Sequence record: NC_017969.1
Reading direction: 5' to 3' (one strand)
DNA: 64,000 nucleotides
From: Escherichia phage vB_EcoS_AKFV33
Under the pieces are notes generated by a model. It was given only the letters and a program-made list of their open reading frames with translations. It searched no databases and had not been told where the DNA came from. Position 1 is the stretch's first letter. The number at the start of each line of letters is the position of its first letter. The translations under genes and the position numbers were made by a program. This document shows, piece by piece, positions 8,450-42,918 of the stretch.

Positions 8450-9088
8450 TTACTCTACTTCAATGAAGGTAGAAGCGTTAGACTCGGACAGAACAAAGTC
8501 AACATTTGTTGCAAAGTCCTGATATTCCTCGTCATGCTGCTTAATCAGCTTTTCCAGTTCCAGCGGATCAATCAAGAATGGAGTATTCTTGAGTTCCAGC
8601 AGGTTGAGCTGCATTTTAACTTCATCTTCGGAAGTTTTCTTATCGCGGGTAGCCATGCTATCCTGCAAACGCTCATATTTAGCATCAAACTGTGCTTTCT
8701 GCGTATTAAACTTAACCGTAGCGGCATGGAACTGCTTACGCATGTTAGCCAGTAGTTGGGCTTTAAGTTCCATAGAACGCTTAGCTTCAATTGCTTCCGC
8801 AACAGTCATCTTACGAGAGCCAATCTCAACGATTGTTTCCGCATTGCTTTTAATCAGAGCAGCTTTGATACGATCACGCTGGGACATCATATCCAGCAGA
8901 GACTGGAAATCAGTCTTAATACGAGTAGACAGATCAGCTACTTCGATTGCAGCGCCAACTACAACTTGGTTTTTATCCTTACCTTCACCAACAGCGATCA
9001 GAAGCTGCTGTTCAGTAGCTTTACGGATTTTAGCTTCCAGAGATTTGATAGTTGCCAGAGCGCGAGTTTTAGAAATACGAGTAGTCAT
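8450..9088 (-). CDS. hypothetical protein (212 aa), coiled-coil rich
   Basis: ORF track. Confidence 0.5.
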   Translation of the reverse strand: MTTRISKTRALATIKSLEAKIRKATEQQLLIAVGEGKDKNQVVVGAAIEVADLSTRIKTDFQSLLDMMSQRDRIKAALIKSNAETIVEIGSRKMTVAEAIEAKRSMELKAQLLANMRKQFHAATVKFNTQKAQFDAKYERLQDSMATRDKKTSEDEVKMQLNLLELKNTPFLIDPLELEKLIKQHDEEYQDFATNVDFVLSESNASTFIEVE

Positions 9089-9141: not shown

Positions 9142-9324
9142 TTACAGACCAATTGCCAGCAGAGTGCGTAGAACAGTATCATTACTGTTATCAATTTTAG
9201 GATTAGCACGATTTAGCAGATCAAAGATTTTCTGGATACCTGATTGACGTTCAGCCATACGACGGATACCCAGATTACGAGTAGCTTTCTTACCATTTTT
9301 ACGAACATTTTTAGATACTGGCAT
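9142..9324 (-). CDS. hypothetical basic protein (60 aa)
   Basis: ORF track. Confidence 0.4.
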   Translation of the reverse strand: MPVSKNVRKNGKKATRNLGIRRMAERQSGIQKIFDLLNRANPKIDNSNDTVLRTLLAIGL

Positions 9325-9364
9325 ATATGTTTTCCTTTTATTGTTTTCTCAAATTTATGAATAT

Positions 9365-9393
9365 ATTATACAGAATTTTGGGGCCGGAAGCAA
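9365..9393 (-). promoter_or_regulatory. early promoter (TTGCTT-17-TATAAT)
   Basis: motif plus ATTCATAAATT box. Confidence 0.5.
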
Positions 9394-9394
9394 A

Positions 9395-10096
9395 TCAAAT
9401 TTTCATTTTTTCGATCATAGCTGCAACACAATAGCTTTCAACTAAGGCATCAAATGCAGGATCATGCTTAACCGGATAGATCCCATAACGAATAGTGTCC
9501 ATCTTCTCCATTTTAGCTATTGCCCAGCTAATACCTTCGGTCTCTAGAGCCTTATAACTGTATCCAGCTTGCATCCAGAGATTACGAAGAGATCGAACAT
9601 TGCCCAAATTCCAGAATTTCCACGGAACTACCTCTTCATTGGTTCCAGCATGGAACGTGTTTGCAGAGTAGATAGTCATATCAAACTCTGGGCCATTGCC
9701 ATAATACAAAGCATTTTCACCTAGAGCCAACTCCATAATATTTTGAGCCATAGAGAAGGCAGCATAGTTTGAGCCTAATTTATTAGTGCAATGATGTTTA
9801 CCATTTTGGAAGGCAATCAGTTTTGGATTACGTTCCTTCATGGCTTCCATAATGTGGATAGCAGACGGGCTATTTTTAGCTTGATCCATCCAGAATGCTA
9901 GAGTAGATGCTGTAACTTTGGCACCAGAATTAAGCTGATCCTGCACATCCAAAGTAGCAAATACTAAGTCAGGGTCTTTATCAATCCCATGCATAGCCAC
10001 AAAAGCGAAAGAAGGCATTGCGATATGAGTAGTACCACAATCTCCTGGAGTTCCTAGAGATTCAATATCTAGCATACCAAATGGTTTTACTTTCAT
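9395..10096 (-). CDS. DEDD-family 3'-5' exonuclease
   Basis: Exo I motif MLDIESLG near N-terminus, Exo III-like HDPAFDA near C-terminus. Confidence 0.6.
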   Translation of the reverse strand: MKVKPFGMLDIESLGTPGDCGTTHIAMPSFAFVAMHGIDKDPDLVFATLDVQDQLNSGAKVTASTLAFWMDQAKNSPSAIHIMEAMKERNPKLIAFQNGKHHCTNKLGSNYAAFSMAQNIMELALGENALYYGNGPEFDMTIYSANTFHAGTNEEVVPWKFWNLGNVRSLRNLWMQAGYSYKALETEGISWAIAKMEKMDTIRYGIYPVKHDPAFDALVESYCVAAMIEKMKI

Positions 10097-10402: not shown

Positions 10403-10618
10403 TCACTTGCCCAGCAGTTTAAGGATATTTTCCATAATAGTTTGGGCAGATTTTTCGCTCTTGTTGGTTTCAGCCAACTTTAAAGCGAGTTCTTCCTGCT
10501 GTTTCTGAATATCCGCAGCAATTTTTTGATCAGCCTCAATACGAGCTTGAAGCTCATCAGTGATAGTGGTAAAGGAAGCAACGATTTCAGTAACGGAACG
10601 TGGTTTCTTAGAGAACAT
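10403..10618 (-). CDS. hypothetical protein (71 aa)
   Basis: ORF track; followed by hairpin terminator. Confidence 0.45.
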   Translation of the reverse strand: MFSKKPRSVTEIVASFTTITDELQARIEADQKIAADIQKQQEELALKLAETNKSEKSAQTIMENILKLLGK

Positions 10619-10681: not shown

Positions 10682-11197
10682 TTACTTCGCTTTACGCTTG
10701 CGAGCTGGTTTAGCAGATTTACGAGCAGAATCACCCGTGAACTTAATGCCTACACCGTAACACAGAGCACGAACATTATCTTTACTATACTCTACGCCAA
10801 AGATATTTGGCTTAACAGAACCAAACTGTCCACGAGTATCACGCAATACATCTGCTGTTGGTTTACGCTTCTGGTTAACTGCCTTCTCATAGTCTTTCAT
10901 AGACATACCATTACGAGAGAACAATTCAGCCCCAGCGTTGAAGCTCAGGGAAACTGGGACAGATTTGTGGCCGTAATTTTCTACATACATAACCATTTTG
11001 TAGGATTTACGGGTGGCATTTTTAGCTTTAGGCTTCTTACGAATCGGAGCCGGATTATTCAGTGCTTGCGCAGCCTGAGCATCGGTAGGATGCTTACGCA
11101 GGTGGCGTTCCAGACGAGCTTTGCGATTAGCCTCGGTCTGCGGGAAAGTTTTAACTGCCGGAGCTGCTTGAGTTTTTGCGTTTTTCTGCTTAGCCAT
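10682..11197 (-). CDS. hypothetical basic protein (171 aa), possible nucleic-acid binding
   Basis: Lys/Arg-rich termini. Confidence 0.5.
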   Translation of the reverse strand: MAKQKNAKTQAAPAVKTFPQTEANRKARLERHLRKHPTDAQAAQALNNPAPIRKKPKAKNATRKSYKMVMYVENYGHKSVPVSLSFNAGAELFSRNGMSMKDYEKAVNQKRKPTADVLRDTRGQFGSVKPNIFGVEYSKDNVRALCYGVGIKFTGDSARKSAKPARKRKAK

Positions 11198-11235
11198 TAT
11201 TTGTTTTCCTTTTTGTTTATCAATTTATGAAGTAT

Positions 11236-11264
11236 ATTATACGAGAATTTGAAGCGTTTAGCAA
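11236..11264 (-). promoter_or_regulatory. early promoter (TTGCTA-17-TATAAT)
   Basis: motif plus CTTCATAAATT box. Confidence 0.5.
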
Positions 11265-11280
11265 ATGAATTTTTTAAAAA

Positions 11281-11559
11281 TTATCTACCAACCATCTTAG
11301 CTTGTTCGGCATCTGAGACATATTGATACGCTCCTTTATTATACGCTGGAGCAGTACACATTTTCTTACGCTCAATCTCTTCTTGAGCTTTTCTTTCGCG
11401 TTCAGCTAATTCTTCATCCAGGTAAACTAAACGTTGCTCTGGAGGAGGTGGGAGACGTGTTTCTGGCTCACCAATATTAGCCTTTCTTATTTGACGAGGT
11501 GATTGTGCACGTTTTCTCAATGGCTTAAATCCTAATGAATTTGAGTTATAAATCCGCAT
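11281..11559 (-). CDS. hypothetical protein (92 aa)
   Basis: ORF track. Confidence 0.45.
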   Translation of the reverse strand: MRIYNSNSLGFKPLRKRAQSPRQIRKANIGEPETRLPPPPEQRLVYLDEELAERERKAQEEIERKKMCTAPAYNKGAYQYVSDAEQAKMVGR

Positions 11560-26681: not shown

Positions 26682-29471
26682 GTGTTTTCTATCCTCCAAG
26701 GTCACGCCGGGTTTTCTCGTGATTTAGCAACAGGTATTTGGCGAGAAATCAAAGCGGAAGATTATACCTTTGCCAAACGATTCTCGAAAGAGCATCCAGA
26801 AGGTAAACCAGCTTCTATGCCCTTCAAATTTGATGTAATAGAAGAGCACGACCCACAAAGCCTTGCCGAAATGTTACCACTTATGAGACGTTTAACGTCT
26901 GACCCTCATATCGTTGCGGTACGAGGTCGATGTCTTGCACCTAAAAATAATGTGCGACGTAAGAAAGGTAACTTTAATGTATCCAACCCTAGCAATATTA
27001 TTGCTATGGACGTGGATGGTATCCTAGATACCGGTGGGTATGACAAGTTTAATCTTGTAGGTATGGCTCGACATATTATTAGGATGTTAAATAGTATTAG
27101 TGAGGATATGTTTCCTCTTGATGCAGGGTTTATCGCTCATGCATCGTCTTCGGCTGGGCTAAAACCAGGTATCCGAATGCACTTAATACTAGAATCTAAT
27201 GTTAAGGTAACTCAGGGTCAAATCAAATTCTTATTTACATCTATCAACGAAAGTAGTAGACAAAAGTATGGCTTTGATATTGCCGACTTAGCTTATTACT
27301 CTTCCGTACAGCTCCATTATTTTGCAGATCCGTTATTTACCGATGGTATAGTAGATCCGTTTAAAGCGGAGAGTAAGCCACGTCTGGTATATGTTAAAGG
27401 TTCGAAGGTAAATTTGCCCAATAATCTGGTTGACTATGAAACAACTAGAGGGGAATTTAAGGAAGAGTTTTATTCTTTACTTGATCAAATTAAAGGCAAA
27501 AAGATTGCTTCTGATAAAGTAGAAGAAACCATCAGCGAATTGGAAGAAGCCGAGGATGGGGTGTACTTGCGTATTATCCCCAAACTCTACCATAGAGCAT
27601 TAGAGGATGGTGTTGATTTCGCATGGCTAGAACGTGAGATTAAACCCGCTTTATCTGAATATATTGCAACTAAAGATAACAGTCGTAATATTCAAGATTA
27701 CTTTAATAACGGTCGTAAGCAGGCTCTCAAAGCGTTTGTTAATAATTCTAAACGTGAGATCCCATTAAATCTGAAGGGTGTTCCACTCAAGAAATTAGAA
27801 GTGGATTCTCCACCAGAAGTTCCGTACCTGAAGATTAACATTGTGCCTCCAAAAGGCCATATAACATTTGTTAAGGCAAGTCTTGGTACTGGTAAGACTA
27901 CGGCAGTAACTAAATGGCTGGACGCAGGTGTTCTTCCTGGCAACTTTTTAGCAGTTACAAATACTAGAGCACTGGTATCTTCAAACGCTAAGAAATTTAG
28001 CGCAGGACAATATGATAAGTCTGTAGATATGCTCAACTTTAAACGTGGAGCTATTGATCGTATGTCTACAACTATCCACTCTTTGCATAAGTTCAAAAGT
28101 TTTATTGGTCAAATAGATACCATTTTTATTGATGAATGTGATGCTGTAATGAATGATCTATTATTCGCACCTGTTGTTAAGCAACGTCGCGAATGTATTC
28201 AAGTTCTACGTGACATCCTCATGACAGCTAAAACTGTAATTCTATCTGATGGGGATATTAGTGCAGAAACAATTGAAGCATATGGTTCTCTAATTGATTT
28301 TGATAAACCAGTAGCATTTTATAATCATCACCGTAAGATGCTGTCAAAAGCTCATGCTTATGAGTTCCCGGATGAATCCAGTATTTGGGTTGCACTTCAG
28401 ACCTCTCTAGAGATGGGTGAGAAATCTATCCTAGTATCTGATTGTGGGCCGGATGAACTGAATGAGAAGGGCATGGCGTTGCGTCGTAATACGGGTGCGT
28501 TAGTTAAGGAAATCCACTCAAACTCTACGTCTGATGTAGATATTCGACGTATTCTGGATTACACAACTAATGAGCTAATTGACCAACAAATTGATTGCTT
28601 ATTATGTAGTCCATCCGTAACTAGTGGTGTTGACTTCAACTATTTTGATAACGTATTCGTTATTACTAGAACCAGCAACCAAGCGCCAAACATGCGTTTC
28701 CAAGCAATCAGGCGCGACCGTGGTGCTCAGAACATTTATTATTTTATTGATAAATCTACGAGTGGATTCTCCGCAGGTTCTGAACAATATAATATTGATG
28801 AGGGTTGGCTGGAGTTAGCACAGCAATTATACGCACGTCGTAGGGAGCTGGAATCTAGGAATTATACTAGTACCTTACGTTATTACTTGCTTGATCAGGG
28901 TGCAACTATTGATATTTTCAGTGAAAGCTGGGGAACTATCGAAGGTGCAGGCAAAGAGTATACAGAAGAGCGAATCAAAGCCATTTTGTATTCAACTCCT
29001 GATTATTGCGCTCCACGTCATGCGGATGCGTATGAAGCTAAACTACTTCTTGTTCGCTACTATCATCTTGAGTCTATTAAAGATGTAACAGTTGAGCATG
29101 TTGAACAATATATCAAGGATAAACCTAATGATCGGGCTGCATTCTTCCATAAAATGCACGAGATGTTCTGGGAAGATATTAAGAAGTGTTCAAATGTCAC
29201 TATCAAACCATTCATAGAAGCTCTGAAAGGTAAGAAGAAAGATTTCTTCCTTAAAACAGGTCAGAGTGCTAACCCAAAATATGCCAGAATGTATCTTGGT
29301 ATGATGGGTATTGGTAAAGATATGAACACGGAGAATATTGTAGACTGGTACAGAACTTATTGTAAAATCGAGTGTATGCCAATCCCATATAAGTTTATGA
29401 CTGATGAGGAGAAACATATGCATGATGAAGCAATGGCAGAGCTAGGTGCTAGAAATGACAGTGAAGAATAA
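26682..29471 (+). CDS. large P-loop NTPase, putative helicase / replication-initiation protein
   Basis: Walker A ASLGTGKTT, DExD-like IFIDECD, TSGVDF; GTG start 7 nt after GGAG. Confidence 0.65.
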   Translation: MFSILQGHAGFSRDLATGIWREIKAEDYTFAKRFSKEHPEGKPASMPFKFDVIEEHDPQSLAEMLPLMRRLTSDPHIVAVRGRCLAPKNNVRRKKGNFNVSNPSNIIAMDVDGILDTGGYDKFNLVGMARHIIRMLNSISEDMFPLDAGFIAHASSSAGLKPGIRMHLILESNVKVTQGQIKFLFTSINESSRQKYGFDIADLAYYSSVQLHYFADPLFTDGIVDPFKAESKPRLVYVKGSKVNLPNNLVDYETTRGEFKEEFYSLLDQIKGKKIASDKVEETISELEEAEDGVYLRIIPKLYHRALEDGVDFAWLEREIKPALSEYIATKDNSRNIQDYFNNGRKQALKAFVNNSKREIPLNLKGVPLKKLEVDSPPEVPYLKINIVPPKGHITFVKASLGTGKTTAVTKWLDAGVLPGNFLAVTNTRALVSSNAKKFSAGQYDKSVDMLNFKRGAIDRMSTTIHSLHKFKSFIGQIDTIFIDECDAVMNDLLFAPVVKQRRECIQVLRDILMTAKTVILSDGDISAETIEAYGSLIDFDKPVAFYNHHRKMLSKAHAYEFPDESSIWVALQTSLEMGEKSILVSDCGPDELNEKGMALRRNTGALVKEIHSNSTSDVDIRRILDYTTNELIDQQIDCLLCSPSVTSGVDFNYFDNVFVITRTSNQAPNMRFQAIRRDRGAQNIYYFIDKSTSGFSAGSEQYNIDEGWLELAQQLYARRRELESRNYTSTLRYYLLDQGATIDIFSESWGTIEGAGKEYTEERIKAILYSTPDYCAPRHADAYEAKLLLVRYYHLESIKDVTVEHVEQYIKDKPNDRAAFFHKMHEMFWEDIKKCSNVTIKPFIEALKGKKKDFFLKTGQSANPKYARMYLGMMGIGKDMNTENIVDWYRTYCKIECMPIPYKFMTDEEKHMHDEAMAELGARNDSEE

Positions 29472-29688
29472 AAAATGGGAAACAAGGAAGTTCCCAGTAA
29501 AAGAACGTAAAGTTCCTGTTTACGACACTTCGGAAAAGCTATGTAGGGTGGTACCGCCCAGATTAGCTGGCATCCCTAACATATCCGAATGGTTACTTAA
29601 ACAACGGAAAACCAACGTGTCTCTTCGCATCGGCTTTGAGTTAGATAAAGTCTATGCTGAACTTGCTTCTTTGCTCAAGGAATCGTAA
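29446..29688 (+). CDS. hypothetical protein (80 aa)
   Basis: ORF track. Confidence 0.35.
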   Translation: MLEMTVKNKKWETRKFPVKERKVPVYDTSEKLCRVVPPRLAGIPNISEWLLKQRKTNVSLRIGFELDKVYAELASLLKES

Positions 29689-29696
29689 AAATTTAT

Positions 29697-29725
29697 TTGC
29701 TTTCAGGAAAATTTTTCTGTATAAT
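29697..29725 (+). promoter_or_regulatory. T5 PN25-type early promoter (TTGCTT-17-TATAAT)
   Basis: TTTATTTGCTTTCAGGAAAATTTTTCTGTATAATAGATTCATAAATTTGAGAGAGGAG matches the classic PN25 sequence from memory. Confidence 0.7.
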
Positions 29726-29756
29726 AGATTCATAAATTTGAGAGAGGAGTTTAAAT

Positions 29757-30461
29757 ATGGCCGGTTCTCGCAGAAAGAAACATATCCATGAAATCCCGGA
29801 TGAAGTCTTCAAAAAAGTTATAGAGCATCTAGAGAACGGTGGTACTAAGAAAGCAGCATGTGAAATGCTTGGCGTATCATCCAATCCAACTATGGAAAGG
29901 ATGATTGAAGAATGGCAAGACCGCCAGATTCAAGTTGCCGAAATGAAGAAAAAGAAACGTGGCACACTCATTGAAGGCATTGAGTTAGCTAACGTTATTG
30001 AGCAGTATTTATCTGGTGATTCTTTTGAAGAGATTGCCGATCGTAATTATCGATCTGTAGCAATGGTTAAATCTGTTCTGGAACGCTATGGTGCTTTGCT
30101 TCGTTTGAACGATATTGTAGACCCATTGAATCCTCCAATTATTCCTGATGATGCTGTAGCAGAAGAATTTGCAGTTGGTGAGCTTGTTTGGGTTCCTGGA
30201 TACCAGTGTATCGGTGAAATCAAAAAAGCAATGGATAATCCTGTTGGTTGTTACCGTGTATGGCTTCTATCAGAAGGCAAACAACAGAACGTTCATTATA
30301 TGAATTACGAGCTGGCTTCTGTTAAACATCTGGAAAAGCTAGGGGTTGATGTAAAATCTCTGGGATACAAGTGGACTCGTGAAGAAGTAATTTCGTTGAT
30401 TAACGAAGCTGTTAAGGCTGCCCTGAAACTTGATAAAGAAAAAGGAAAACGCCGTGAGTAA
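29757..30461 (+). CDS. DNA-binding protein with two HTH-like motifs
   Basis: GTKKAACEMLGVSSNPTMERM and SFEEIADRNYRSVAMVKSV segments; follows PN25-type promoter. Confidence 0.55.
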   Translation: MAGSRRKKHIHEIPDEVFKKVIEHLENGGTKKAACEMLGVSSNPTMERMIEEWQDRQIQVAEMKKKKRGTLIEGIELANVIEQYLSGDSFEEIADRNYRSVAMVKSVLERYGALLRLNDIVDPLNPPIIPDDAVAEEFAVGELVWVPGYQCIGEIKKAMDNPVGCYRVWLLSEGKQQNVHYMNYELASVKHLEKLGVDVKSLGYKWTREEVISLINEAVKAALKLDKEKGKRRE

Positions 30462-30705
30462 ACTAACAGATTTGCTTAAAGATGGGGAAGTAAAAACTCT
30501 GTATCGTAGAAGCTGGGATAATGACAATAATGGCTTAGTGTTACTAACTTTAGACGCTGACTCAGATGTAGTTACCCAACATACCTGGGTAGCTGGTAGT
30601 TATCCCTATAGTGAGGTTGTTACGTTAACAGTATGCGAAGCTATTGCTGACGATTGGGAGATTGCCAGCATTGATGATATGCTTGCTGTTGGCCTGGTGG
30701 AGTAA
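30455..30705 (+). CDS. hypothetical acidic protein (~83 aa)
   Basis: GTG start overlapping upstream stop. Confidence 0.4.
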
Positions 30706-30808
30706 CTACAGAAAAATTTCAGTTGCTTAATCCTATAATTCTTGATATAATATTCTCATAGTTTGAAAGAACTATTCTGTTTAATTCTTAATTAAGGAAA
30801 TATAAAAT

Positions 30809-31219
30809 ATGACTACTCCAACTCAGTGGACTGATGAACTGTTCGAAAAAATGTCTTCCGAATACGTTGCTCGTATGGAGCAATTCCCAGAGGATGAACG
30901 TCCGGGTGTTAGCATGGAAATTGTTAGCGAAATTGCCCAGGAAAATGGTGTAACTCCGAACGGTTTTCGTATGAAGCTGACTAAAGCAGGTTTGTATATC
31001 AAGAAAGCTGCTGGCTCTGCTTCTAAATCTAGCGCATCTACTGGAGAAAAAGCTTCCGGTGGTTCTCGTACCTCCAAAGCCCAAGCTCACGCCGATCTTC
31101 GCTCAGCATTCTCTGATGCTGGCCTAGCACCAGATTTTCTGGATGATGCAATTATCGACAAACTGACCGGTAAAGCGGCTGCTCATCTGGCAGAAGCAAT
31201 CCGAGCTATCACTAAGTAA
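30809..31219 (+). CDS. hypothetical protein (136 aa), host-like codon usage
   Basis: strong preference for GCT/CTG/CGT/GAA/AAA codons. Confidence 0.55.
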   Translation: MTTPTQWTDELFEKMSSEYVARMEQFPEDERPGVSMEIVSEIAQENGVTPNGFRMKLTKAGLYIKKAAGSASKSSASTGEKASGGSRTSKAQAHADLRSAFSDAGLAPDFLDDAIIDKLTGKAAAHLAEAIRAITK

Positions 31220-32970: not shown

Positions 32971-33020
32971 TACATAACCCTTTGCTACCCATCTACCATA
33001 TAGGAATTATAAAGTGGTTA

Positions 33021-33049
33021 TTGACATTTTCGCCGCTTAGGTATATACT
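33021..33049 (+). promoter_or_regulatory. sigma70 promoter (TTGACA-17-TATACT) between the ligase halves
   Basis: consensus -35 and spacing. Confidence 0.5.
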
Positions 33050-33113
33050 ATTATCATTCAGTTGAGGGATAGAAAGTTATGGCGAGGGTAAGCAAAGTTA
33101 GTTAAAATTGTAG

Positions 33114-33142
33114 TTGCTAAATGCTTAAATACTTGCTATAAT
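33114..33142 (+). promoter_or_regulatory. early promoter (TTGCTA-17-TATAAT) upstream of ligase C-terminal gene
   Basis: motif plus TTTATATAAATTGATAAGG leader. Confidence 0.55.
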
Positions 33143-33172
33143 ATTTATATAAATTGATAAGGAAGAAATTTG

Positions 33173-33943
33173 ATGAAAATCGAAATTCCAACACAATGTC
33201 CCTCTTGTGGTTCTAAGCTAGATCTTGTCAACGGACAATTATTCTGTCGGAATAAGTCCAACTGTCCAGCGCAATCAAGTAAGTTAATTGAGAACTTCTG
33301 TACAAAAATGAAGTTAAAGGGCTTTGGTCCAAAAACTATTGAGAAGCTGGAGCTGACGAAGATTTCAGAACTATTTTACCTAACCGAAGAAGATTTGGTT
33401 AGAGCCGTGGGTAGCAAGGTTGCCGCTAAGTTAATTAGCGAATTAAATACTAAAGTTCGCGGAGACATTGACTTTGGTTCAGTTCTCGGTTCTTTAGGAA
33501 TCCCTCTAATTGGAGAGGTTGCAGCAAAGAAATTATCCCAAAATTGCACTAGCTTCCACGATGTGAAGGCTGACGGCAAGGCTGGAGAAAATTATAAAGC
33601 CTGGCTAAATTCCCCACAGGGCAAGGATGTTATCGAATTACCGTGGAAATTCTCAACTGGTGCTAAAACTAAAACCGTCGTTACTGATGATTTAGTTGCC
33701 CAGCCAAATGGAATCGCGGTATGTATTACCGGATCTTTGCAAGATTTTGCAAATCGAACGGATGCAACAAACTATTTAGAAGGTCTAGGATACACGGTTA
33801 AGAAATCCGTTACCAAAGACGTAAAATACCTGATCTGTGAGGATGAATCAAAACGTTCTTCCTCATCTTATAAGAAAGCCGAAACGAATGGGATAGAAAT
33901 CCTGTCGATTAAAGAACTATTGGAGAAAAATAATAATGTCTAA
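33173..33943 (+). CDS. ligA: NAD-dependent DNA ligase, C-terminal (zinc finger-HhH-BRCT) half
   Basis: CPSCGS...C...C zinc finger, HhH-like GIPLIGEVAAKKL, BRCT-like tail. Confidence 0.8.
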   Translation: MKIEIPTQCPSCGSKLDLVNGQLFCRNKSNCPAQSSKLIENFCTKMKLKGFGPKTIEKLELTKISELFYLTEEDLVRAVGSKVAAKLISELNTKVRGDIDFGSVLGSLGIPLIGEVAAKKLSQNCTSFHDVKADGKAGENYKAWLNSPQGKDVIELPWKFSTGAKTKTVVTDDLVAQPNGIAVCITGSLQDFANRTDATNYLEGLGYTVKKSVTKDVKYLICEDESKRSSSSYKKAETNGIEILSIKELLEKNNNV

Positions 33944-34703
33944 ACTGAACTGGAACGTAGAAGGTGTAACCGAGTCTCTGAAAGCAAAAGCCACTGCTCT
34001 GGGTGTTTCTGTAATCTCTCAAGAACAAGTAGCCGCTATCGCTGCTGAACTGGCTGCTGAAACTGGCAAAGATGTTACCGCTCGCTCTGTTGGCTCTAAA
34101 CTGCGTAAAGAAGGTTTTGAAGTACAGAAAGCTAACGAAGTACAGAAATCCCCGTGGACTCCTGAGCAGGAAGCTGAACTGGTTGATTTCCTGAACGCTC
34201 ATGCTGGTCAGTATACCTATGCTGAAATCGCTGCTGCTGTAGCTGGTGGTCAGTTCGGTGCTAAGCAGGTACAGGGTAAGATTCTGAGCCTGGAAATGAC
34301 CGCTTCTGTTAAGCCAACCGAAAAAGCTGCTGCTGTTCGTTCCTTCACTCCGGATGAAGAAACTGATTTTGTTAATCAGGTTGTTGCTGGCGCTACTATT
34401 GAAGCTATCGCTGCTCACTTCGGTCGTAATATCAAGCAGATCCGTGGTAAAGCTCTGAGTTTGCTTCGTGAAGGTCGTATCGCTGCTATGCCGGTACAGG
34501 AAACTTCAAGTGCTAAAACTCGTGAAGATCTGTTAGAAGGTCTGGATCTGGTTAACATGACTGTTGCTGAGATCGCTGAGAAAACTGGTAAGTCTGAGCG
34601 CGGTGTTAAATCTATGCTGTCTCGTCGTGGTCTGGTTGCTAAGGACTATGATGGTGCCGCTAAGCGTGCTAAACTGGATGCAAAAGCTGCGGCTGCTGAA
34701 TAA
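33936..34703 (+). CDS. protein with four tandem HTH-like repeats, host-like codon usage
   Basis: four ~50-aa repeats; Ala-rich; GCT/CTG/CGT codon bias. Confidence 0.55.
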   Translation: MSKLNWNVEGVTESLKAKATALGVSVISQEQVAAIAAELAAETGKDVTARSVGSKLRKEGFEVQKANEVQKSPWTPEQEAELVDFLNAHAGQYTYAEIAAAVAGGQFGAKQVQGKILSLEMTASVKPTEKAAAVRSFTPDEETDFVNQVVAGATIEAIAAHFGRNIKQIRGKALSLLREGRIAAMPVQETSSAKTREDLLEGLDLVNMTVAEIAEKTGKSERGVKSMLSRRGLVAKDYDGAAKRAKLDAKAAAAE

Positions 34704-34720: not shown

Positions 34721-34757
34721 AAGGGGAGGGGGCTATGCTCCTTCCCCTTTTTGCATT
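34721..34757 (+). terminator. rho-independent terminator
   Basis: AAGGGGAGG-loop-CCTTCCCCTT then TTTTGCATTT. Confidence 0.55.
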
Positions 34758-34785
34758 TAGAAGGCACGAAAGCGTGCAAAGGAGA

Positions 34786-36258
34786 ATGACCTTGTTTAAC
34801 GTGCAAGCTGTAGTGTTGAAGATGCTTCTAGCTTCCGAACAGAAGCAAATAGCATTGGAAACATTCTCAAAACTGCATAAAGATCATTTTAATGACGCTT
34901 TCTCCTCAATTTACCAAGCCGTCCAGAATTATTATAAAAAATATAACACAATGCCGTCCATTGACGCACTTATGCTTGAAGCTAATAGGAACGCCCGCCT
35001 TTCTCAAGCTCTAGTCGTCTTAGCTAACACTCAAATTCCAGAAGTGAGCATGGAACAGGCACTTGAAGTCCTAGAGGCTGAATATACACAGGATTTATTC
35101 CTGAAGCTTCTAGAAACAGACGTGCTTCAAGATTTAACAATGCTGGATCAGGGAGAAATTCTCAACCGAGTTGCCTCCCTTCACTTAAAATTAGAAGAGA
35201 AAGTAACGAATACTGGAAAAGTATTCAACGCAGATAACATGCGTATTTTCCAGAGAGAAGAAGATACCAAACTGAACTTAATCGCTCTTGGTATTTGTAA
35301 TGAGTTCGACGCTCAAATTGGTTTAGCTCGCACAGAAACGTTACTGCTTGGTGGTTGGCGTGGTACTGGTAAATCCATTATCTGTTCAAACATACAGGTT
35401 CAGCAATATTTGAATGGAGATATTGCTCCATACTTCTCAATTGAGATGAAAGAACATGAAGTATTTAGACGTAATCTAGCCATGTTAGCCGGGGTATCAG
35501 CACTAGCAATGCGTAATAATACTCTAGAAGGTGCAGCTCTATTGAGATTAGCCAGAACTAGAGCTAGAATGTTTAATGGGGGTGAAGAGCTTTTTGATAA
35601 CTTCGTTAAACAGTACACAATGGCTAAGATGAGTGATTTCTACGATATGGAGAGTAAGCTAATAGAGGGATATGAACTACATACTCCTATGATTATCGTT
35701 TATGACCCTGAACTGTCCATTACAACAGTTGACGTAGAATTAAATAAATTAGTTGCTAGATATGGTGATAAAGTTACAGTAGCTTTACTGGACTATATTA
35801 ACCAAACCCGACTTCCAGATTCTAAAACCATTGATATGTATGACTGGAAAGAACAGATGGTTGTTAGCTCGTCTTTCAAATCTATCTGCCAGAAACATAA
35901 CGTGGCTGGTGTAGCTCCTTACCAGATCGATCAAGATGGTAGAACACGTATGTCAAAGGGTATTCTTGATTCCGCAGACATGGCTGCTAATCTTAATGCT
36001 GCAAAAGCTGATAATGGTCAAGGTGCTATTATGTTTGACTTCGTTAAGACTCGTTCTTCTGATAGCGTGAAGTTTATGCCTAAAATGAACTGGGAAACCT
36101 TGCGGATGGATAACACTACCAACCTAGCGATGGAAGATATATCTCAAATGGAAGCTGAGTTCGTTATCCCTATTGAGAAGGATAAGCCGGCTCAACCTAA
36201 ACGTGCTAAGAAAGACAAAACCGAAAATTCAACAGGTGAACAGGCCAGCGATATATGA
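34786..36258 (+). CDS. replicative helicase, DnaB/RecA-like ATPase domain
   Basis: Walker A GGWRGTGKS; start moved to ATG after AAGGAG because upstream codons are the terminator hairpin. Confidence 0.7.
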   Translation: MTLFNVQAVVLKMLLASEQKQIALETFSKLHKDHFNDAFSSIYQAVQNYYKKYNTMPSIDALMLEANRNARLSQALVVLANTQIPEVSMEQALEVLEAEYTQDLFLKLLETDVLQDLTMLDQGEILNRVASLHLKLEEKVTNTGKVFNADNMRIFQREEDTKLNLIALGICNEFDAQIGLARTETLLLGGWRGTGKSIICSNIQVQQYLNGDIAPYFSIEMKEHEVFRRNLAMLAGVSALAMRNNTLEGAALLRLARTRARMFNGGEELFDNFVKQYTMAKMSDFYDMESKLIEGYELHTPMIIVYDPELSITTVDVELNKLVARYGDKVTVALLDYINQTRLPDSKTIDMYDWKEQMVVSSSFKSICQKHNVAGVAPYQIDQDGRTRMSKGILDSADMAANLNAAKADNGQGAIMFDFVKTRSSDSVKFMPKMNWETLRMDNTTNLAMEDISQMEAEFVIPIEKDKPAQPKRAKKDKTENSTGEQASDI

Positions 36259-40265: not shown

Positions 40266-41614
40266 AGGTTGTTATATCTAATAAAGCCTATTTCAAGCCC
40301 GATGATGAACTTTGGGATTATTGTAGTAAGCAAACCACTTATCACATTGAGACAATGACTAGTAAATACCCTATTATGTATAAGAATAGTGGTGTTGTTG
40401 CTAAAGAGATTAAGTGGATTCCTATCACGCGTCTGGATTTACTAGATGCTAAAGGAGTAAAATACGAATTAGTCGATAAACGCACATTAGCTCCGGTAGA
40501 TATACCAAAACCTAAGTTCAAGCTGCGCGAAGAAGATCAGCTTCCAATATACGAAGAATGCGATGATACCTGTATTATTAATGGTAAGCCTGGATTTGGT
40601 AAAACTATCCTAGCCCTTGCACTTGCGTATAAATTTGGCCAGAAAACTTTGGTAATTTGTACCAACACATCTATTCGTGAAATGTGGGCGGCAGAAGTTC
40701 GTAAATGGTTTGGGTTTGAACCAGGTATCATAGGTTCTGGGAAATACAATATTGATCCACCAATTGTGGTCAGTAATATTCAAACAGTGAATAAACATGC
40801 GAATAATCTTTCTAAAGTATTCGGTACTGTTATAGTTGATGAAGTTCACCATTGTGTGGCTACAACTTTCACTAACTTCCTAGAAATATCATGTGCTCGC
40901 TATAAGATCGGACTATCTGGAACATTAAAACGGAAAGATGGTCTACAAGTCATGTTCAAAGATTTCTTTGGATATAAGATCTTTAGCCCACCGGTTAATA
41001 ATACTATTGCTCCTACAATCCATAGGTACTCCGTGCCTGTTGAGCTATCAGGAAACCAAAACGTACCGTGGGCATTACGTGCTAATGATGTGTATAATCA
41101 TCCTGAATATAGGGAGACTATTATAAATCTAGCACATTTATATGTGAATATGGGGCATAAAGTACTCATTGTAAGTGACAGAACAGAGTTAATCCAAACA
41201 GTACTAGAAGCTCTTGCACAGCGTGGTGTTACAACATATGAAATTATAGGGGCAACTCACTTAGATGACCGATTAAAAATTCAGGAAGATATAGCAAAAG
41301 GTGGACCTTGTGTACTTGCAGCCGCTCAAAGTATCTTCTCTGAGGGTATTTCCCTTAATGAATTATCTTGCTTAATAATGGGCAGTCTCATTAATAATGA
41401 GTCTCTCATTGAACAGCTCGCAGGCCGTGTTCAACGTATTGTCGATGGTAAACTAGACCCTATTGTTGTGGATCTAATTATGAAAGGCGGCACTGGACTA
41501 AGACAGGCTTCTGGACGTATGGCAGTATATCGTAACAACGGGTGGAAAACTATTACCATGACTCCTGAGAAAGCAGTTCAATTAGCTAAAATTGCATTTG
41601 GCAACAGCTCATAA
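40262..41614 (+). CDS. SF2 ATP-dependent DNA helicase
   Basis: Walker A GKPGFGKT, DEVHH box. Confidence 0.8.
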   Translation: MKVVISNKAYFKPDDELWDYCSKQTTYHIETMTSKYPIMYKNSGVVAKEIKWIPITRLDLLDAKGVKYELVDKRTLAPVDIPKPKFKLREEDQLPIYEECDDTCIINGKPGFGKTILALALAYKFGQKTLVICTNTSIREMWAAEVRKWFGFEPGIIGSGKYNIDPPIVVSNIQTVNKHANNLSKVFGTVIVDEVHHCVATTFTNFLEISCARYKIGLSGTLKRKDGLQVMFKDFFGYKIFSPPVNNTIAPTIHRYSVPVELSGNQNVPWALRANDVYNHPEYRETIINLAHLYVNMGHKVLIVSDRTELIQTVLEALAQRGVTTYEIIGATHLDDRLKIQEDIAKGGPCVLAAAQSIFSEGISLNELSCLIMGSLINNESLIEQLAGRVQRIVDGKLDPIVVDLIMKGGTGLRQASGRMAVYRNNGWKTITMTPEKAVQLAKIAFGNSS

Positions 41615-41626
41615 ATGATGTATAAT
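41598..41626 (+). promoter_or_regulatory. early promoter (TTGGCA-17-TATAAT) overlapping helicase 3' end
   Basis: motif plus ATACATAAATTTGAGAGAG leader. Confidence 0.45.
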
Positions 41627-41697
41627 ATATACATAAATTTGAGAGAGAAAGTTTCGGATTGATAAGAAAGTCCGAAGCAGAAAAATAAAAATTTTAG

Positions 41698-41727
41698 TTG
41701 CTAAATTCTCTCGAAATCTAGTATAAT
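41698..41727 (+). promoter_or_regulatory. early promoter (TTGCTA-18-TATAAT), tandem to previous
   Basis: motif plus ATACATAAATTCGAGGAG leader. Confidence 0.5.
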
Positions 41728-41834
41728 ATATACATAAATTCGAGGAGAAAATAAAAATTAAATTCTTCGATTATGAAAAGCTATACTTACTAGCTAGAGG
41801 AAATTCCGACCTAATTATTAAGCTATTCAAAAGA

Positions 41835-42119
41835 ATGCTTACAGAGCCTGATGCTCACCAATTATTGGTCGGTTCCTCATTCATTTTGAATGAATCAACA
41901 ATAGTTGATAATCCAAATAAATTGTCTAACAGACAACTGGCAGAATATCTAGGAATTTTAAGTCTACGAAATTATGCCGAATACAAGTTTACAAACGATC
42001 CTAGTTTGGACATACAATATGTTCCAGTATGGATACCACGTTTAGTAATCGACACTAACCCACTAATCGCAATTAACAAATCAAAATTAATCTTTAAAGA
42101 GGAAATAAAATATGGCTAA
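41835..42119 (+). CDS. hypothetical protein (94 aa)
   Basis: ORF track; overlaps RBS of next gene. Confidence 0.3.
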   Translation: MLTEPDAHQLLVGSSFILNESTIVDNPNKLSNRQLAEYLGILSLRNYAEYKFTNDPSLDIQYVPVWIPRLVIDTNPLIAINKSKLIFKEEIKYG

Positions 42120-42885
42120 GTCTTGGGGCGAAACTACTGGCGGTTCTAACGATAAAATCGAATTCCTGAAGTTCAACAACGGTATCACTCGTGTTCGTAT
42201 CGTTTCTGGTGTTCTTCCACGTTATGTCTATTGGCTGACTAATAAAGAGGGTAACGTAGCTCCTTTCGAATGTCTCCGTTTTAACCGTGACAAAGAGAGC
42301 TTTGTTCGTGGTAAAGCTGACCCGGTTCATGAGATGGGCTTCTTTGAGAAAGAGCTGGATAAAGATGGTAATCGTGTTCCCCTGAAACCGAAGAAAAACT
42401 ATATCGCTTTTGTTATCGACCGTTCTGATAACAAACTGAAAGTAATGGAAGTCAAGGCTACTATTCTGAAGGGCATCCAGTCTATCATGAAGCAGCTGAG
42501 CCTGGCAACTCCGTTTGATATTGATATTTCTATCGAGAAAAAAGGTAAAGGTTTCGATACTGAGTATGATGTACAGCAGATTGCTGCTATGCAGTTCCAG
42601 ATTAAGCTGCAAGATCCTAACAGTGCAGAATCTAAGCAATATGCTGCGGATGTCGATCTGATCGGTGAAGCTATGTGTGATAAAGATGGCGACATCATTA
42701 AGTTCGAAAAAGTTCCTTCTCTGGAACAAACCTATCCGGTTCCTACCTATGAAGAGCAGAAAGAAGCAATTCTAGCCTTCATGGAGGGTCGCGAGAATAA
42801 AGATGATGATGCCAAATCTGGTAATAGCAATGCAGGTTCCCAGAAAGGTATTGACTCAGAAGCTGCAAGCGATCTGGACGACTAA
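42112..42885 (+). CDS. putative ssDNA-binding protein with acidic C-terminal tail
   Basis: tail ...SEAASDLDD as in phage SSBs; host-like codon usage; AAAGAGGAA RBS. Confidence 0.45.
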   Translation: MAKSWGETTGGSNDKIEFLKFNNGITRVRIVSGVLPRYVYWLTNKEGNVAPFECLRFNRDKESFVRGKADPVHEMGFFEKELDKDGNRVPLKPKKNYIAFVIDRSDNKLKVMEVKATILKGIQSIMKQLSLATPFDIDISIEKKGKGFDTEYDVQQIAAMQFQIKLQDPNSAESKQYAADVDLIGEAMCDKDGDIIKFEKVPSLEQTYPVPTYEEQKEAILAFMEGRENKDDDAKSGNSNAGSQKGIDSEAASDLDD

Positions 42886-42892
42886 TAAATAG

Positions 42893-42918
42893 AGGGGCTT
42901 CGGCCCCTTTCTTTTTAA
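42893..42918 (+). terminator. rho-independent terminator
   Basis: AGGGGC-TTCG-GCCCCT then TTCTTTTT. Confidence 0.6.

Follow-up and report, generated by a model that had tools for sequence, protein, structure and literature searches.

Predicted four-module helix-turn-helix architecture of protein D5 in a T5-like phage and the high-expression design of its gene

Knowledge of the D5 gene of bacteriophage T5 dates back to the 1970s, its founding paper being that of McCorquodale et al. (1979, J Virol 29:322, as cited in PMC12630848). The D5 entry of the T5 record NC_005859 describes the product as a 'DNA-binding protein; required for DNA replication and late transcription', and also names an involvement in the shutoff of expression. 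The present analysis concerns the counterpart of this gene in Escherichia phage vB_EcoS_AKFV33, the open reading frame (ORF) at 33936-34703 (+) of a stretch of 64,000 nucleotides from sequence record NC_017969.1, hereafter called the window. The purified T5 protein, of 29 kDa, reportedly binds duplex DNA cooperatively and is said to modulate the T5 DNA polymerase on duplex templates, and the shut-off attributed to D5 is said in literature of 1979 to concern phage early genes. A possible functional parallel is p6 of phage phi29, a very abundant early protein that lies along the phage double-stranded DNA and affects both replication and the early-late switch. Its fold and sequence are unrelated to those of D5, and the comparison is of function only.

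The closest solved fold to the repeated unit of D5 is the N-terminal DNA-binding domain (DBD) of Caulobacter crescentus GcrA (PDB 5YIU/5YIV; Pfam PF07750). In GcrA, the helix-turn-helix (HTH) formed by α2 and α3 sits in the major groove, contacts with the phosphate backbone include W3 and K39, and base contacts include N34, I37 and H41, while the σ70-interacting domain (SID) contains a CCCH zinc finger composed of C118, C133, C143 and H146 (PMC5887438). GcrA combines one DBD with this SID and is a monomeric, methylation-sensitive activator. In contrast, D5 is predicted to carry four DBD-like modules and no SID and, judging from its codon usage, would be made in far larger amounts. No report linking D5 with GcrA was found in the literature searched.

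Based on sequence comparison, the ORF is assigned as an orthologue of T5 D5, and it encodes an already known protein rather than a new one. The approximately 2.5 kb surrounding it are about 99% identical at the nucleotide level to many genomes of Tequintavirus (T5-like, Demerecviridae), with Salmonella phage SP1a and Escherichia phage T5_ev212 among the nearest; the window phage is thus a relative of T5 and not T5 itself. In Tequintavirus records, the matching ORF is labelled 'D5 protein/DNA-binding protein', 'putative transcription factor D5' or 'D5-like transcriptional regulator'. The product (255 aa, 27.06 kDa, isoelectric point 6.8, ATG start) is identical to T5 D5 (T5.118, YP_006946.1; NC_005859) at 254 of 255 residues, the sole change being S25 in the window and D in T5. 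Of the 768 nucleotides, 24 differ, almost all of them synonymously, and the contrast with a single amino acid change indicates strong purifying selection. The protein also matches PHROG 323, 'transcriptional regulator, D5-like', over residues 1-253 (E = 1.4e-71), and the homologues recovered that are both close and full-length belong to T5-like (Demerecviridae-type) phages or metagenomic contigs. The two D5 genes are equal in length, lie between ligB and a DnaB-like helicase gene, and have the promoters P-K28b and P-K28a upstream. Upstream of D5 in its operon lies ligB (33170-33943 (+)), which encodes the B subunit of an NAD-dependent DNA ligase and whose stop is overlapped by the D5 start. 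As in the early replication module of T5, gene order in the window runs from a bipolar helicase (T5.108) through D2, D3, a PC4-like regulator, ligA, ligB and D5 to replication genes encoding the DnaB-like helicase, primase, DNA polymerase, D10, D11 and D12/D13, and the order ligB-D5-DnaB-like helicase-primase-DNA polymerase is common to the window, T5_ev212, T5 and Vibrio phage Chester.

D5 is predicted to consist of four tandem HTH modules, three of them tri-helical and one shorter, followed by a conserved C-terminal helix. The first repeat (R1; 33948-34133 (+), aa 5-66) has helices at residues 11-22, 29-43 and 49-58 and the signature W6...R50-S-V-G53-S-K55-L-R57. R2 (34149-34313 (+), aa 72-126) has helices at 76-88, 95-101 and 109-118 and reads W74-T-x-E...K110-Q-V-Q-G114-K115, and R3 (34338-34502 (+), aa 135-189) has helices at 139-150, 155-162 and 166-178 and reads F137-T-x-x-E...R170-G171-K172. 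R4 (34512-34643 (+), aa 193-236) is degenerate; it lacks the first helix, its N-terminal portion is unstructured, and its HTH has two helices (210-217, 221-231). The homologue alignment and the model together delimit a final segment, D237-Y-D-G240-A-A-K-R-A-K-L-D (34644-34700 (+)), with a helix at 240-254. Among 33 homologues, D237 and G240 of this segment are invariant and A241 and K246 nearly so, and the C-terminal DYDGAAKRAKLD helix is a candidate protein-protein contact or oligomerisation element. The AlphaFold2 model, with a mean predicted local distance difference test score (pLDDT) of 93.1, contains 3+3+3+2 helices plus the C-terminal helix.

The relationship between the repeats emerges mainly from profiles. 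In single-sequence Smith-Waterman comparisons, R2 (71-130) and R3 (136-192) form the only clearly significant pair (z = 8.0); z is about 3 for each of R1-R4, R2-R4 and R3-R4, while R1-R2 does no better than chance. When sub-profiles of the repeats were built from the 33 aligned homologues, which are 50-80% identical, R2-R3 gave E = 1.4e-8, R3-R4 9e-5, R1-R4 2.8e-4, R1-R3 6e-3, R2-R4 9e-3 and R1-R2 0.08, values that link the repeats in a transitive chain, R2-R3-R4-R1. The 48 repeat segments of 12 diverse homologues align in register and share an opening aromatic-T/N-x-E (W6, W74, F137; absent in R4), a second helix ending in x-x-I-A, and a third helix of the form basic-x-V-x-G/S-K-hydrophobic-x-S. 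Hidden Markov models (HMMs) that leave out one repeat type at a time score the window repeats R1 to R4 at 10.5, 26.8, 21.2 and 10.3 bits, compared with 99th percentiles of 3.8-6.5 bits and maxima of 7.2-10.9 bits in 1,200 shuffles. R1, R2 and R3 exceed all 1,200 shuffles, and R4 lies above its 99th percentile (6.5 bits) and below its maximum (10.9). In a search of 1.84 billion representative proteins with the pooled repeat profile, almost every protein of D5 size shows four matched stretches, no more and no fewer. A tandem repeat was also looked for at the DNA level in D5 and none of relevance was found, so the duplication is probably ancient. An earlier note on this DNA, made from the letters alone, had described four tandem HTH-like repeats of about 50 aa; the profiles, the leave-one-out HMMs and the model bear this out, with a spacing of about 63 aa and cores of about 50-60 aa, and the internal repetition is significant in profile comparisons.

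The same note's term 'HTH-like' is also apt, as the Pfam matches of whole D5 and of the isolated repeats are to HTH families only. In the module comparison, for which the GcrA sequence was taken from the PDB, hhalign aligns the GcrA DBD over the whole domain with the pooled D5-repeat profile (95.4%, E = 1.7e-8, score 38.1), compared with a mean of 8.9 and a maximum of 18.7 for 300 shuffled GcrA sequences. R3 is the nearest individual repeat (E = 1.4e-5). D5 thereby has a tri-helical HTH like that at the N-terminus of GcrA, and the module belongs to the GcrA-N-terminal/Myb-SANT type of HTH. The Pfam GcrA model itself finds no match in whole D5 at E <= 1, none in the 48 repeat segments at E <= 0.01, and none in the four window repeats at E <= 10. 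Moreover, the D5 sequence contains no cysteine, and the protein therefore lacks the CCCH zinc-finger SID of GcrA. Membership of D5 in the GcrA family was thus rejected on the Pfam threshold and the domain architecture, although the DBD is homologous.

Other HTH families are more distant. The best Pfam Myb score of D5 is 17.6 bits against a cut-off of 24.4 (PF00249), and HTH_23, HTH_33, HTH_28 and others likewise match below their cut-offs. Myb/SANT repeats (c-Myb R1-R3, the Timeless DNA-binding repeats, SNAPc4) have three regularly spaced tryptophans, which are absent in D5; of the Myb aromatic positions D5 keeps only the first, as W6, W74 and F137. Myb proteins, moreover, are mainly eukaryotic, sequence-specific factors. 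One family does pass its threshold, as Sigma70_r4_2 matches R4 (residues 204-230) with 28.8 bits against a cut-off of 25.7 and is found in 14 of the 48 repeat segments. In the Pfam scan, D5 has no Sigma70_r2 match, and Sigma70_r3 scores 20.7 bits, below its cut-off of 25.3 and on the same HTH. A sigma-factor identity was rejected on these grounds, since region 4 alone matches and regions 2 and 3 fail. A sequence profile search of the PDB with D5 returned nothing significant, and Foldseek with the whole D5 model returned no match below E = 1e-3. Its best whole-chain match (E = 0.017) is the C-terminal domain of SelB (PDB 1LVA), which, like D5, strings together four small nucleic-acid-binding domains of HTH type in about 250 residues. 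In contrast to D5, the SelB domains are winged helices that have β-wings and recognise an RNA hairpin, and with a TM-score of 0.19 and no sequence similarity the likeness is an architectural analogy only.

The pooled D5-repeat profile also retrieves uncultured proteins with 5-22 tandem copies of the module, including P0258, P0225, P0228 and P0241. The longest array noted, P0258, has 22 matched stretches in 1,259 aa. Proteins with 5-9 tandem copies are called GcrA by Pfam (P0225, E = 1.4e-52; P0228, E = 3.6e-55), these two with multiple GcrA domains each, and other proteins retrieved are called Myb. Tandem arrays of GcrA-type HTHs seem to be undescribed.

A further copy of the D5 module appears to lie in the same region of the window. 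D3 (30809-31219 (+), 136 aa), a 'DNA binding protein' in both PHROG 1725 and the T5 annotation, is modelled with a tri-helical HTH (helices 9-24, 28-45 and 50-59), followed by a disordered linker (69-86) rich in Ser, Gly and Lys and by a conserved helical domain at the C-terminus in which the motif D-K-L-T-G-K-A-A is invariant. The N-terminal 70 residues of D3 align with R1 of D5 (hhalign 84%, E = 7.7e-6, 62 columns), and the helices of the two are in register and almost superimposable. Sequence and model together suggest that D3 holds, at aa 6-66, one copy of the module present four times in D5. Some homologues of D5 and D3 carry a precomputed PF26822.1 assignment (P0045, P0046, P0049, P0062, P0074, P0164, P0167 and P0171), and PF26822 may already cover the shared module.

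The codon usage of D5 sets it apart from nearly all other genes of the phage. It was assessed for 78 non-overlapping ORFs of at least 60 aa in the window with the codon adaptation index (CAI), calculated both with the Sharp and Li E. coli weights and with weights derived from 4,884 codons in 28 E. coli K-12 genes, which comprise rpoA and those for ribosomal proteins and elongation factors (the str, S10, spc and alpha ribosomal-protein operons with tufA and fusA). A third, reference-free scoring used principal component analysis of relative synonymous codon usage (RSCU). All three agree on D5 as the top gene. On the Sharp and Li scale, D5 has a CAI of 0.704 and ranks first of 78 (window mean 0.278, standard deviation 0.107), compared with 0.325 ± 0.026 expected for the D5 protein sequence from synonymous resampling of window-wide usage (z = 14.7). 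On the K-12-derived scale, D5 again ranks first with 0.771; the window median and the median of the poorly expressed gsp/chiA genes are both 0.338, and the E. coli reference genes have a median of 0.678 and a range of 0.546-0.839. The codon quality of D5 is at least equal to that of a typical E. coli ribosomal protein gene. D5 is also the extreme of the first RSCU component (29% of variance), followed by D11, the ORFs at 8450-9088(-) and 10682-11197(-), D3 and DNA polymerase, along an axis that sets CGT, CTG, GGT, TCT, GTT, ACT, ATC and CCG against AGA, TTA, ATA, GGA and AGG.

This preference pervades the D5 gene. CTG makes up 84% of its leucine codons compared with 17% window-wide, and GCT supplies 86% of the Ala codons, CGT 83% of those for Arg, GGT 84% of those for Gly and ATC 80% of those for Ile. 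The rare codons AGA, AGG, ATA, CTA, TTA, CGA, CGG and GGA together constitute 0.4% of D5 codons compared with a window mean of 9.2%. The codons that D5 avoids are used heavily by the bulk of phage genes, and the phage has tRNA genes for several of them. The G+C content at third codon positions (GC3) is only 0.33 in D5, and the signal is therefore one of codon choice as in highly expressed host genes rather than of host composition. In this respect, the description of the usage as host-like in the earlier note holds for the codons of highly expressed E. coli genes and not for base composition, while its view of D5 as an outlier is confirmed across the window ORFs. The two ORFs to which it had ascribed the same signature, D3 and D11 (42112-42885 (+)), also share it; D3 has a CAI of 0.549 (rank 2) with the Sharp and Li weights and 0.623 (rank 4) with the K-12-derived weights, and D11 has 0.542 (rank 4) and 0.655 (rank 2). 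Two further genes that were not in that note belong with them, namely the homologue of T5.085 at 8450-9088(-) (0.548 and 0.645, rank 3 in both) and that of T5.089 at 10682-11197(-) (0.493 and 0.606, rank 5 in both). The bias extends to a phage of another host. The D5 orthologue of Vibrio phage Chester, 48% identical, again marks the end of the first RSCU component and shows the smallest effective number of codons (32.2), followed by D11 (34.5) and D3 (35.8). That the same three genes are the most biased of a Vibrio phage suggests a conserved selection for very high expression.

The signals around D5 are of the same character. Every gene of high CAI either lies directly 3' of an early promoter annotated in T5 or belongs to the operon that such a promoter serves, and all of these features are kept in the window. 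Two of them serve ligB and D5. The equivalent of P-K28b (33003-33075 (+); TTGACA-17-TATACT at 33021-33049) has an alignment score of 73/75 to the T5 feature and 11/12 in a consensus scan, and that of P-K28a (33094-33168 (+); TTGCTA-17-TATAAT with TG at 33114-33142) is identical to its T5 counterpart at 75 of 75 positions and is likewise found by the scan. The named T5 promoters of this and the other high-CAI genes are presumably the unusually strong ones characterised by Bujard's laboratory. A GGAG, serving as ribosome-binding site, lies 9 nt 5' of the D5 ATG. Beginning 18 nt past the D5 stop, a terminator-like hairpin (34721-34759 (+)) has 13 bp, eight of them G-C, followed by a T-run, and its folding energy is -25.6 kcal/mol (z = -2.9). 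Vibrio phage Chester has a counterpart after D5, also with a T-run, which lies wholly inside the space between D5 and the helicase gene. With early promoters, GGAG, optimal codons and a terminator, D5 is built for very high expression.

In the window, the hairpin overlaps the start of the DnaB-like helicase gene (D6), with the ATG at 34735 in its loop. This ATG is the helicase start both in a mechanical list of ORFs and in NC_005859. Its position in the loop may mean that the annotated start is wrong or that translation of the helicase is coupled to read-through of the terminator.

The abundance of D5 itself is inferred from the CAI, the early promoters, the terminator and the mass spectrometry of a related phage. 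The 'major virion-associated proteins' listed for Yersinia phage phiR2-01, which is T5-like, include its D5 homologue as the only one not known as structural (PMC8624392). Such an association would be expected of a very abundant DNA-bound protein. The earlier suggestion that D5, D3 and D11 are abundant early DNA-binding proteins of replication agrees with the T5 annotation and the PHROG assignments as far as function is concerned, while its part on abundance leans on these indirect indications. A further suggestion, host DNA shut-off, does not fit D5, because degradation of host DNA in T5 depends on A1, a pre-early gene (bioRxiv 10.64898/2026.04.02.716235).

D5 has also been linked to phage defence, as T5 D5 triggers the type IX retron-Kva2 (July 2026 preprint). 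According to the same preprint, AlphaFold3 predicts that D5 binds the msdDNA stem-loop like the winged-helix protein of the retron, mass photometry shows that the complex is remodelled by D5, and D5 expressed alone is toxic. The triggering is ascribed there to this binding, which would be an independent indication that D5 binds DNA. Escape phages carry D5 G53D, W74*, V149I and G232D, or changes in D3 or D2, those in D3 being E30Q and G85D (July 2026 preprint). In our alignment, G53 and G232 are the conserved glycines of the recognition-helix regions of R1 and R4, the opening tryptophan of R2 is W74, and helix 1 of R3 contains V149, so that each of the four repeats is hit by one D5 change. The module that D3 shares with D5 may explain the escape mutations in D3. 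The preprint reports as viable an escape phage that combines a D5 stop at W74 (34155-34157 in the window) with three missense changes, although D5 is annotated as required for replication and late transcription.

Taken together, the ORF very probably encodes the D5 orthologue, an early four-module protein that binds double-stranded DNA, serves replication and the switch to late transcription, and would coat the phage DNA and owe its codon usage to selection for expression. The third helix of each module, whose basic-x-V-x-G/S-K motif is shared with the recognition helix of GcrA, would enter the major groove, and four flexibly linked modules would provide multivalent, largely sequence-independent binding. 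Many copies of D5 would then coat replicating phage DNA and make the template unfavourable for continued early transcription but fit for replication and transcription of late genes. To coat many replicating genomes stoichiometrically would demand extreme expression of D5, which would explain the arrangement of promoters, codons and terminator. The positions equivalent to W3 and K39 of GcrA, the opening tryptophan and the lysine of the G-K motif, look conserved between the D5 repeats, and those equivalent to the base-reading residues look variable; this combination would suggest binding directed mainly to the backbone.

Several observations weigh against this interpretation. The variability of the base-reading positions is our own reading of the alignment. 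D5 is near-neutral (isoelectric point 6.8) and its R2 carries a net acidic charge, uncommon traits in a protein that coats DNA non-specifically, so that not all four modules may contact DNA. The predicted template modelling score of the AlphaFold2 model is 0.51, and the mutual arrangement of the modules is not confident. In addition, the DNA binding, cooperativity and abundance of D5 are inferred from annotation, older literature, and codon and promoter analysis, and the Sigma70_r4_2 match of R4 and the resemblance to GcrA appear equally compatible with a specific role linked to RNA polymerase.

The last point leads to the alternative that carries the most weight, in which D5 is chiefly a sequence-specific or RNA polymerase-associated late-promoter factor, GcrA-like or sigma-region-4-like, and coating is secondary. 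At least one of the HTH modules would then recognise an element of the promoter and another part would touch the host RNA polymerase; we consider this possible, though not likely. The names 'transcription factor D5', 'late gene transcription factor' and 'transcriptional regulator, D5-like' in databases and the requirement for late transcription recorded in NC_005859 agree with such a role. R4 passes the Sigma70_r4_2 threshold, the nearest solved fold is the DBD of a σ70-bound activator, and the conserved C-terminal helix could serve as a protein-contact element, which together speak for some contact with the transcription machinery. However, D5 without cysteine has no SID of the GcrA kind, no match to sigma region 2 or 3 rises above threshold, and the recognition-helix positions differ among the four repeats. 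Codons at the level of ribosomal protein genes and the abundance seen by mass spectrometry far exceed the need of a promoter-specific factor, and the binding of D5 in classical biochemistry was reportedly cooperative and to any duplex DNA. It is far less probable that D5 acts primarily in counter-defence, as a decoy that titrates defence nucleic acids such as retron msDNA, with indirect phenotypes in replication and transcription. Its interaction with retron-Kva2, the prediction that it binds the stem-loop of the msdDNA, and the escape mutations in D5, D3 and D2 would suit a decoy, yet D5 triggers this defence rather than blocking it, holds a strictly syntenic place in the replication module across Demerecviridae of very different hosts, and is credited by the reference annotation with direct phenotypes in replication and late transcription.

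The two remaining alternatives concern the protein sequence and the gene rather than the function. The four repeats could be an artefact of alanine-rich, helical low complexity, with only R2 and R3 a true duplication, given that single-sequence significance is confined to R2-R3, R1-R2 is at chance, and R1 and R4 reach only about 10 bits in the leave-one-out HMMs. Against this, profiles join R2-R3-R4-R1 transitively, the motifs W/F-T-x-E, x-x-I-A and basic-x-V-x-G-K recur in register across 12 diverse homologues, and every repeat exceeds the 99th percentile of 1,200 shuffles that were matched in composition. The helix pattern also recurs in the model of pLDDT 93, each repeat on its own matches HTH families only, and an artefact is accordingly very improbable. 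Recent acquisition of D5 from E. coli or another enterobacterium, with codon usage not shaped by selection for expression, is more improbable still. The G+C content of D5 is 0.475, compared with about 0.39 for the window, and its codon usage resembles that of E. coli genes. However, a blastn search of 5,426 complete E. coli genomes gives no match to D5, and T5-like phages and metagenomic contigs are the sources of the close full-length homologues recovered. The GC3 of 0.33 and the T-ending codons with CTG and ATC fit highly expressed, not average, E. coli genes, the Vibrio phage orthologue is likewise the most biased gene of its genome, and four other genes behind annotated early promoters have the same bias. 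Transfer of D5 from host to phage was rejected on the lack of an E. coli match and the low GC3.

Of the other highly biased genes of the window, D3 lies immediately 3' of the equivalent of P-N26 (30703-30777 (+)), which was located by its match to the annotated T5 feature. D11 (257 aa, with an acidic C-terminal tail) is labelled 'single strand DNA binding protein' in PHROG 1607 (E = 3.5e-105) and in the T5 annotation. The T5.125-D11 operon is preceded by equivalents of P31A and P31B (41578-41751 (+)), which match the T5 features, and followed by a terminator (42894-42916 (+)) identical to the annotated T5 terminator at 23 of 23 positions. The T5.085 homologue (8450-9088(-)) is called 'tail fiber protein' in PHROG 1491 and NC_005859 and has no Pfam match. 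With its location in the early region, its third-highest CAI (0.645 with the K-12-derived weights), and an annotated promoter at 9341-9413 (-) that serves both 9142-9324(-) and this gene, the tail-fibre label looks doubtful, and the product is probably another very abundant early protein. The T5.089 homologue (10682-11197(-)) matches Pfam DUF7022 (E = 1.8e-76) and lies directly behind P-H207 (11209-11283 (-)), which serves it. Downstream of it, the ORF at 10403-10618(-) (71 aa, PHROG 2380) ranks sixth in CAI.

A set of 11 tRNA genes lies at 666-5873 (-), namely Lys-CTT, Asp, Asn, Cys, Phe, Trp, Glu, Tyr, Leu-TAA, Ser-GCT and Arg-TCT. The Leu-TAA and Arg-TCT tRNAs decode codons that are common in the bulk of phage genes and almost entirely avoided by D5, D11 and D3; a Leu-UAG tRNA and an AUA-reading Ile tRNA are annotated in T5 (NC_005859). 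The window phage lacks the HNH homing-endonuclease genes hegI and hegJ, both of which are present in the T5 record. In T5, hegI sits after T5.108 and hegJ between the D6 helicase and primase genes, corresponding to 29446-29757 and 36255 in the window, where the helicase ORF (ending at 36258) directly overlaps the primase start (36255).

A broader interpretation, which we regard as speculative and rather improbable, sees D5 with four copies and D3 with one as a phage branch of the GcrA-type HTH that has been multimerised into a DNA-coating block, a form of phage chromatin that recruits σ70 RNA polymerase. D5 would coat T5 DNA through four loosely sequence-specific modules, and the C-terminal DYDGAAKRAKLD helix, perhaps with D3, would recruit or reprogramme the host σ70 RNA polymerase at late promoters. 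A mechanism like that of GcrA would thereby have been reinvented without the zinc-finger σ-binding domain.

Overall, codon usage and the repeat pattern read from raw sequence correctly singled out abundant early DNA-binding phage proteins. To what is on record, the analysis adds the description of D5 as a predicted four-fold GcrA/Myb-type HTH protein, the likely paralogy of D3 and D5, the conservation of the codon-biased trio D5, D11 and D3 across hosts, and the mapping of retron-Kva2 escape mutations to conserved positions in each repeat. The module map leaves the kind of protein that D5 is unchanged and could guide mutagenesis of this retron-trigger protein. If D5 and D3 do form a chromatin-like coat of the kind outlined above, the arrays of up to 22 copies would represent a widespread, undescribed class of DNA-coating proteins, and the module would be the surface that type IX retrons sense.

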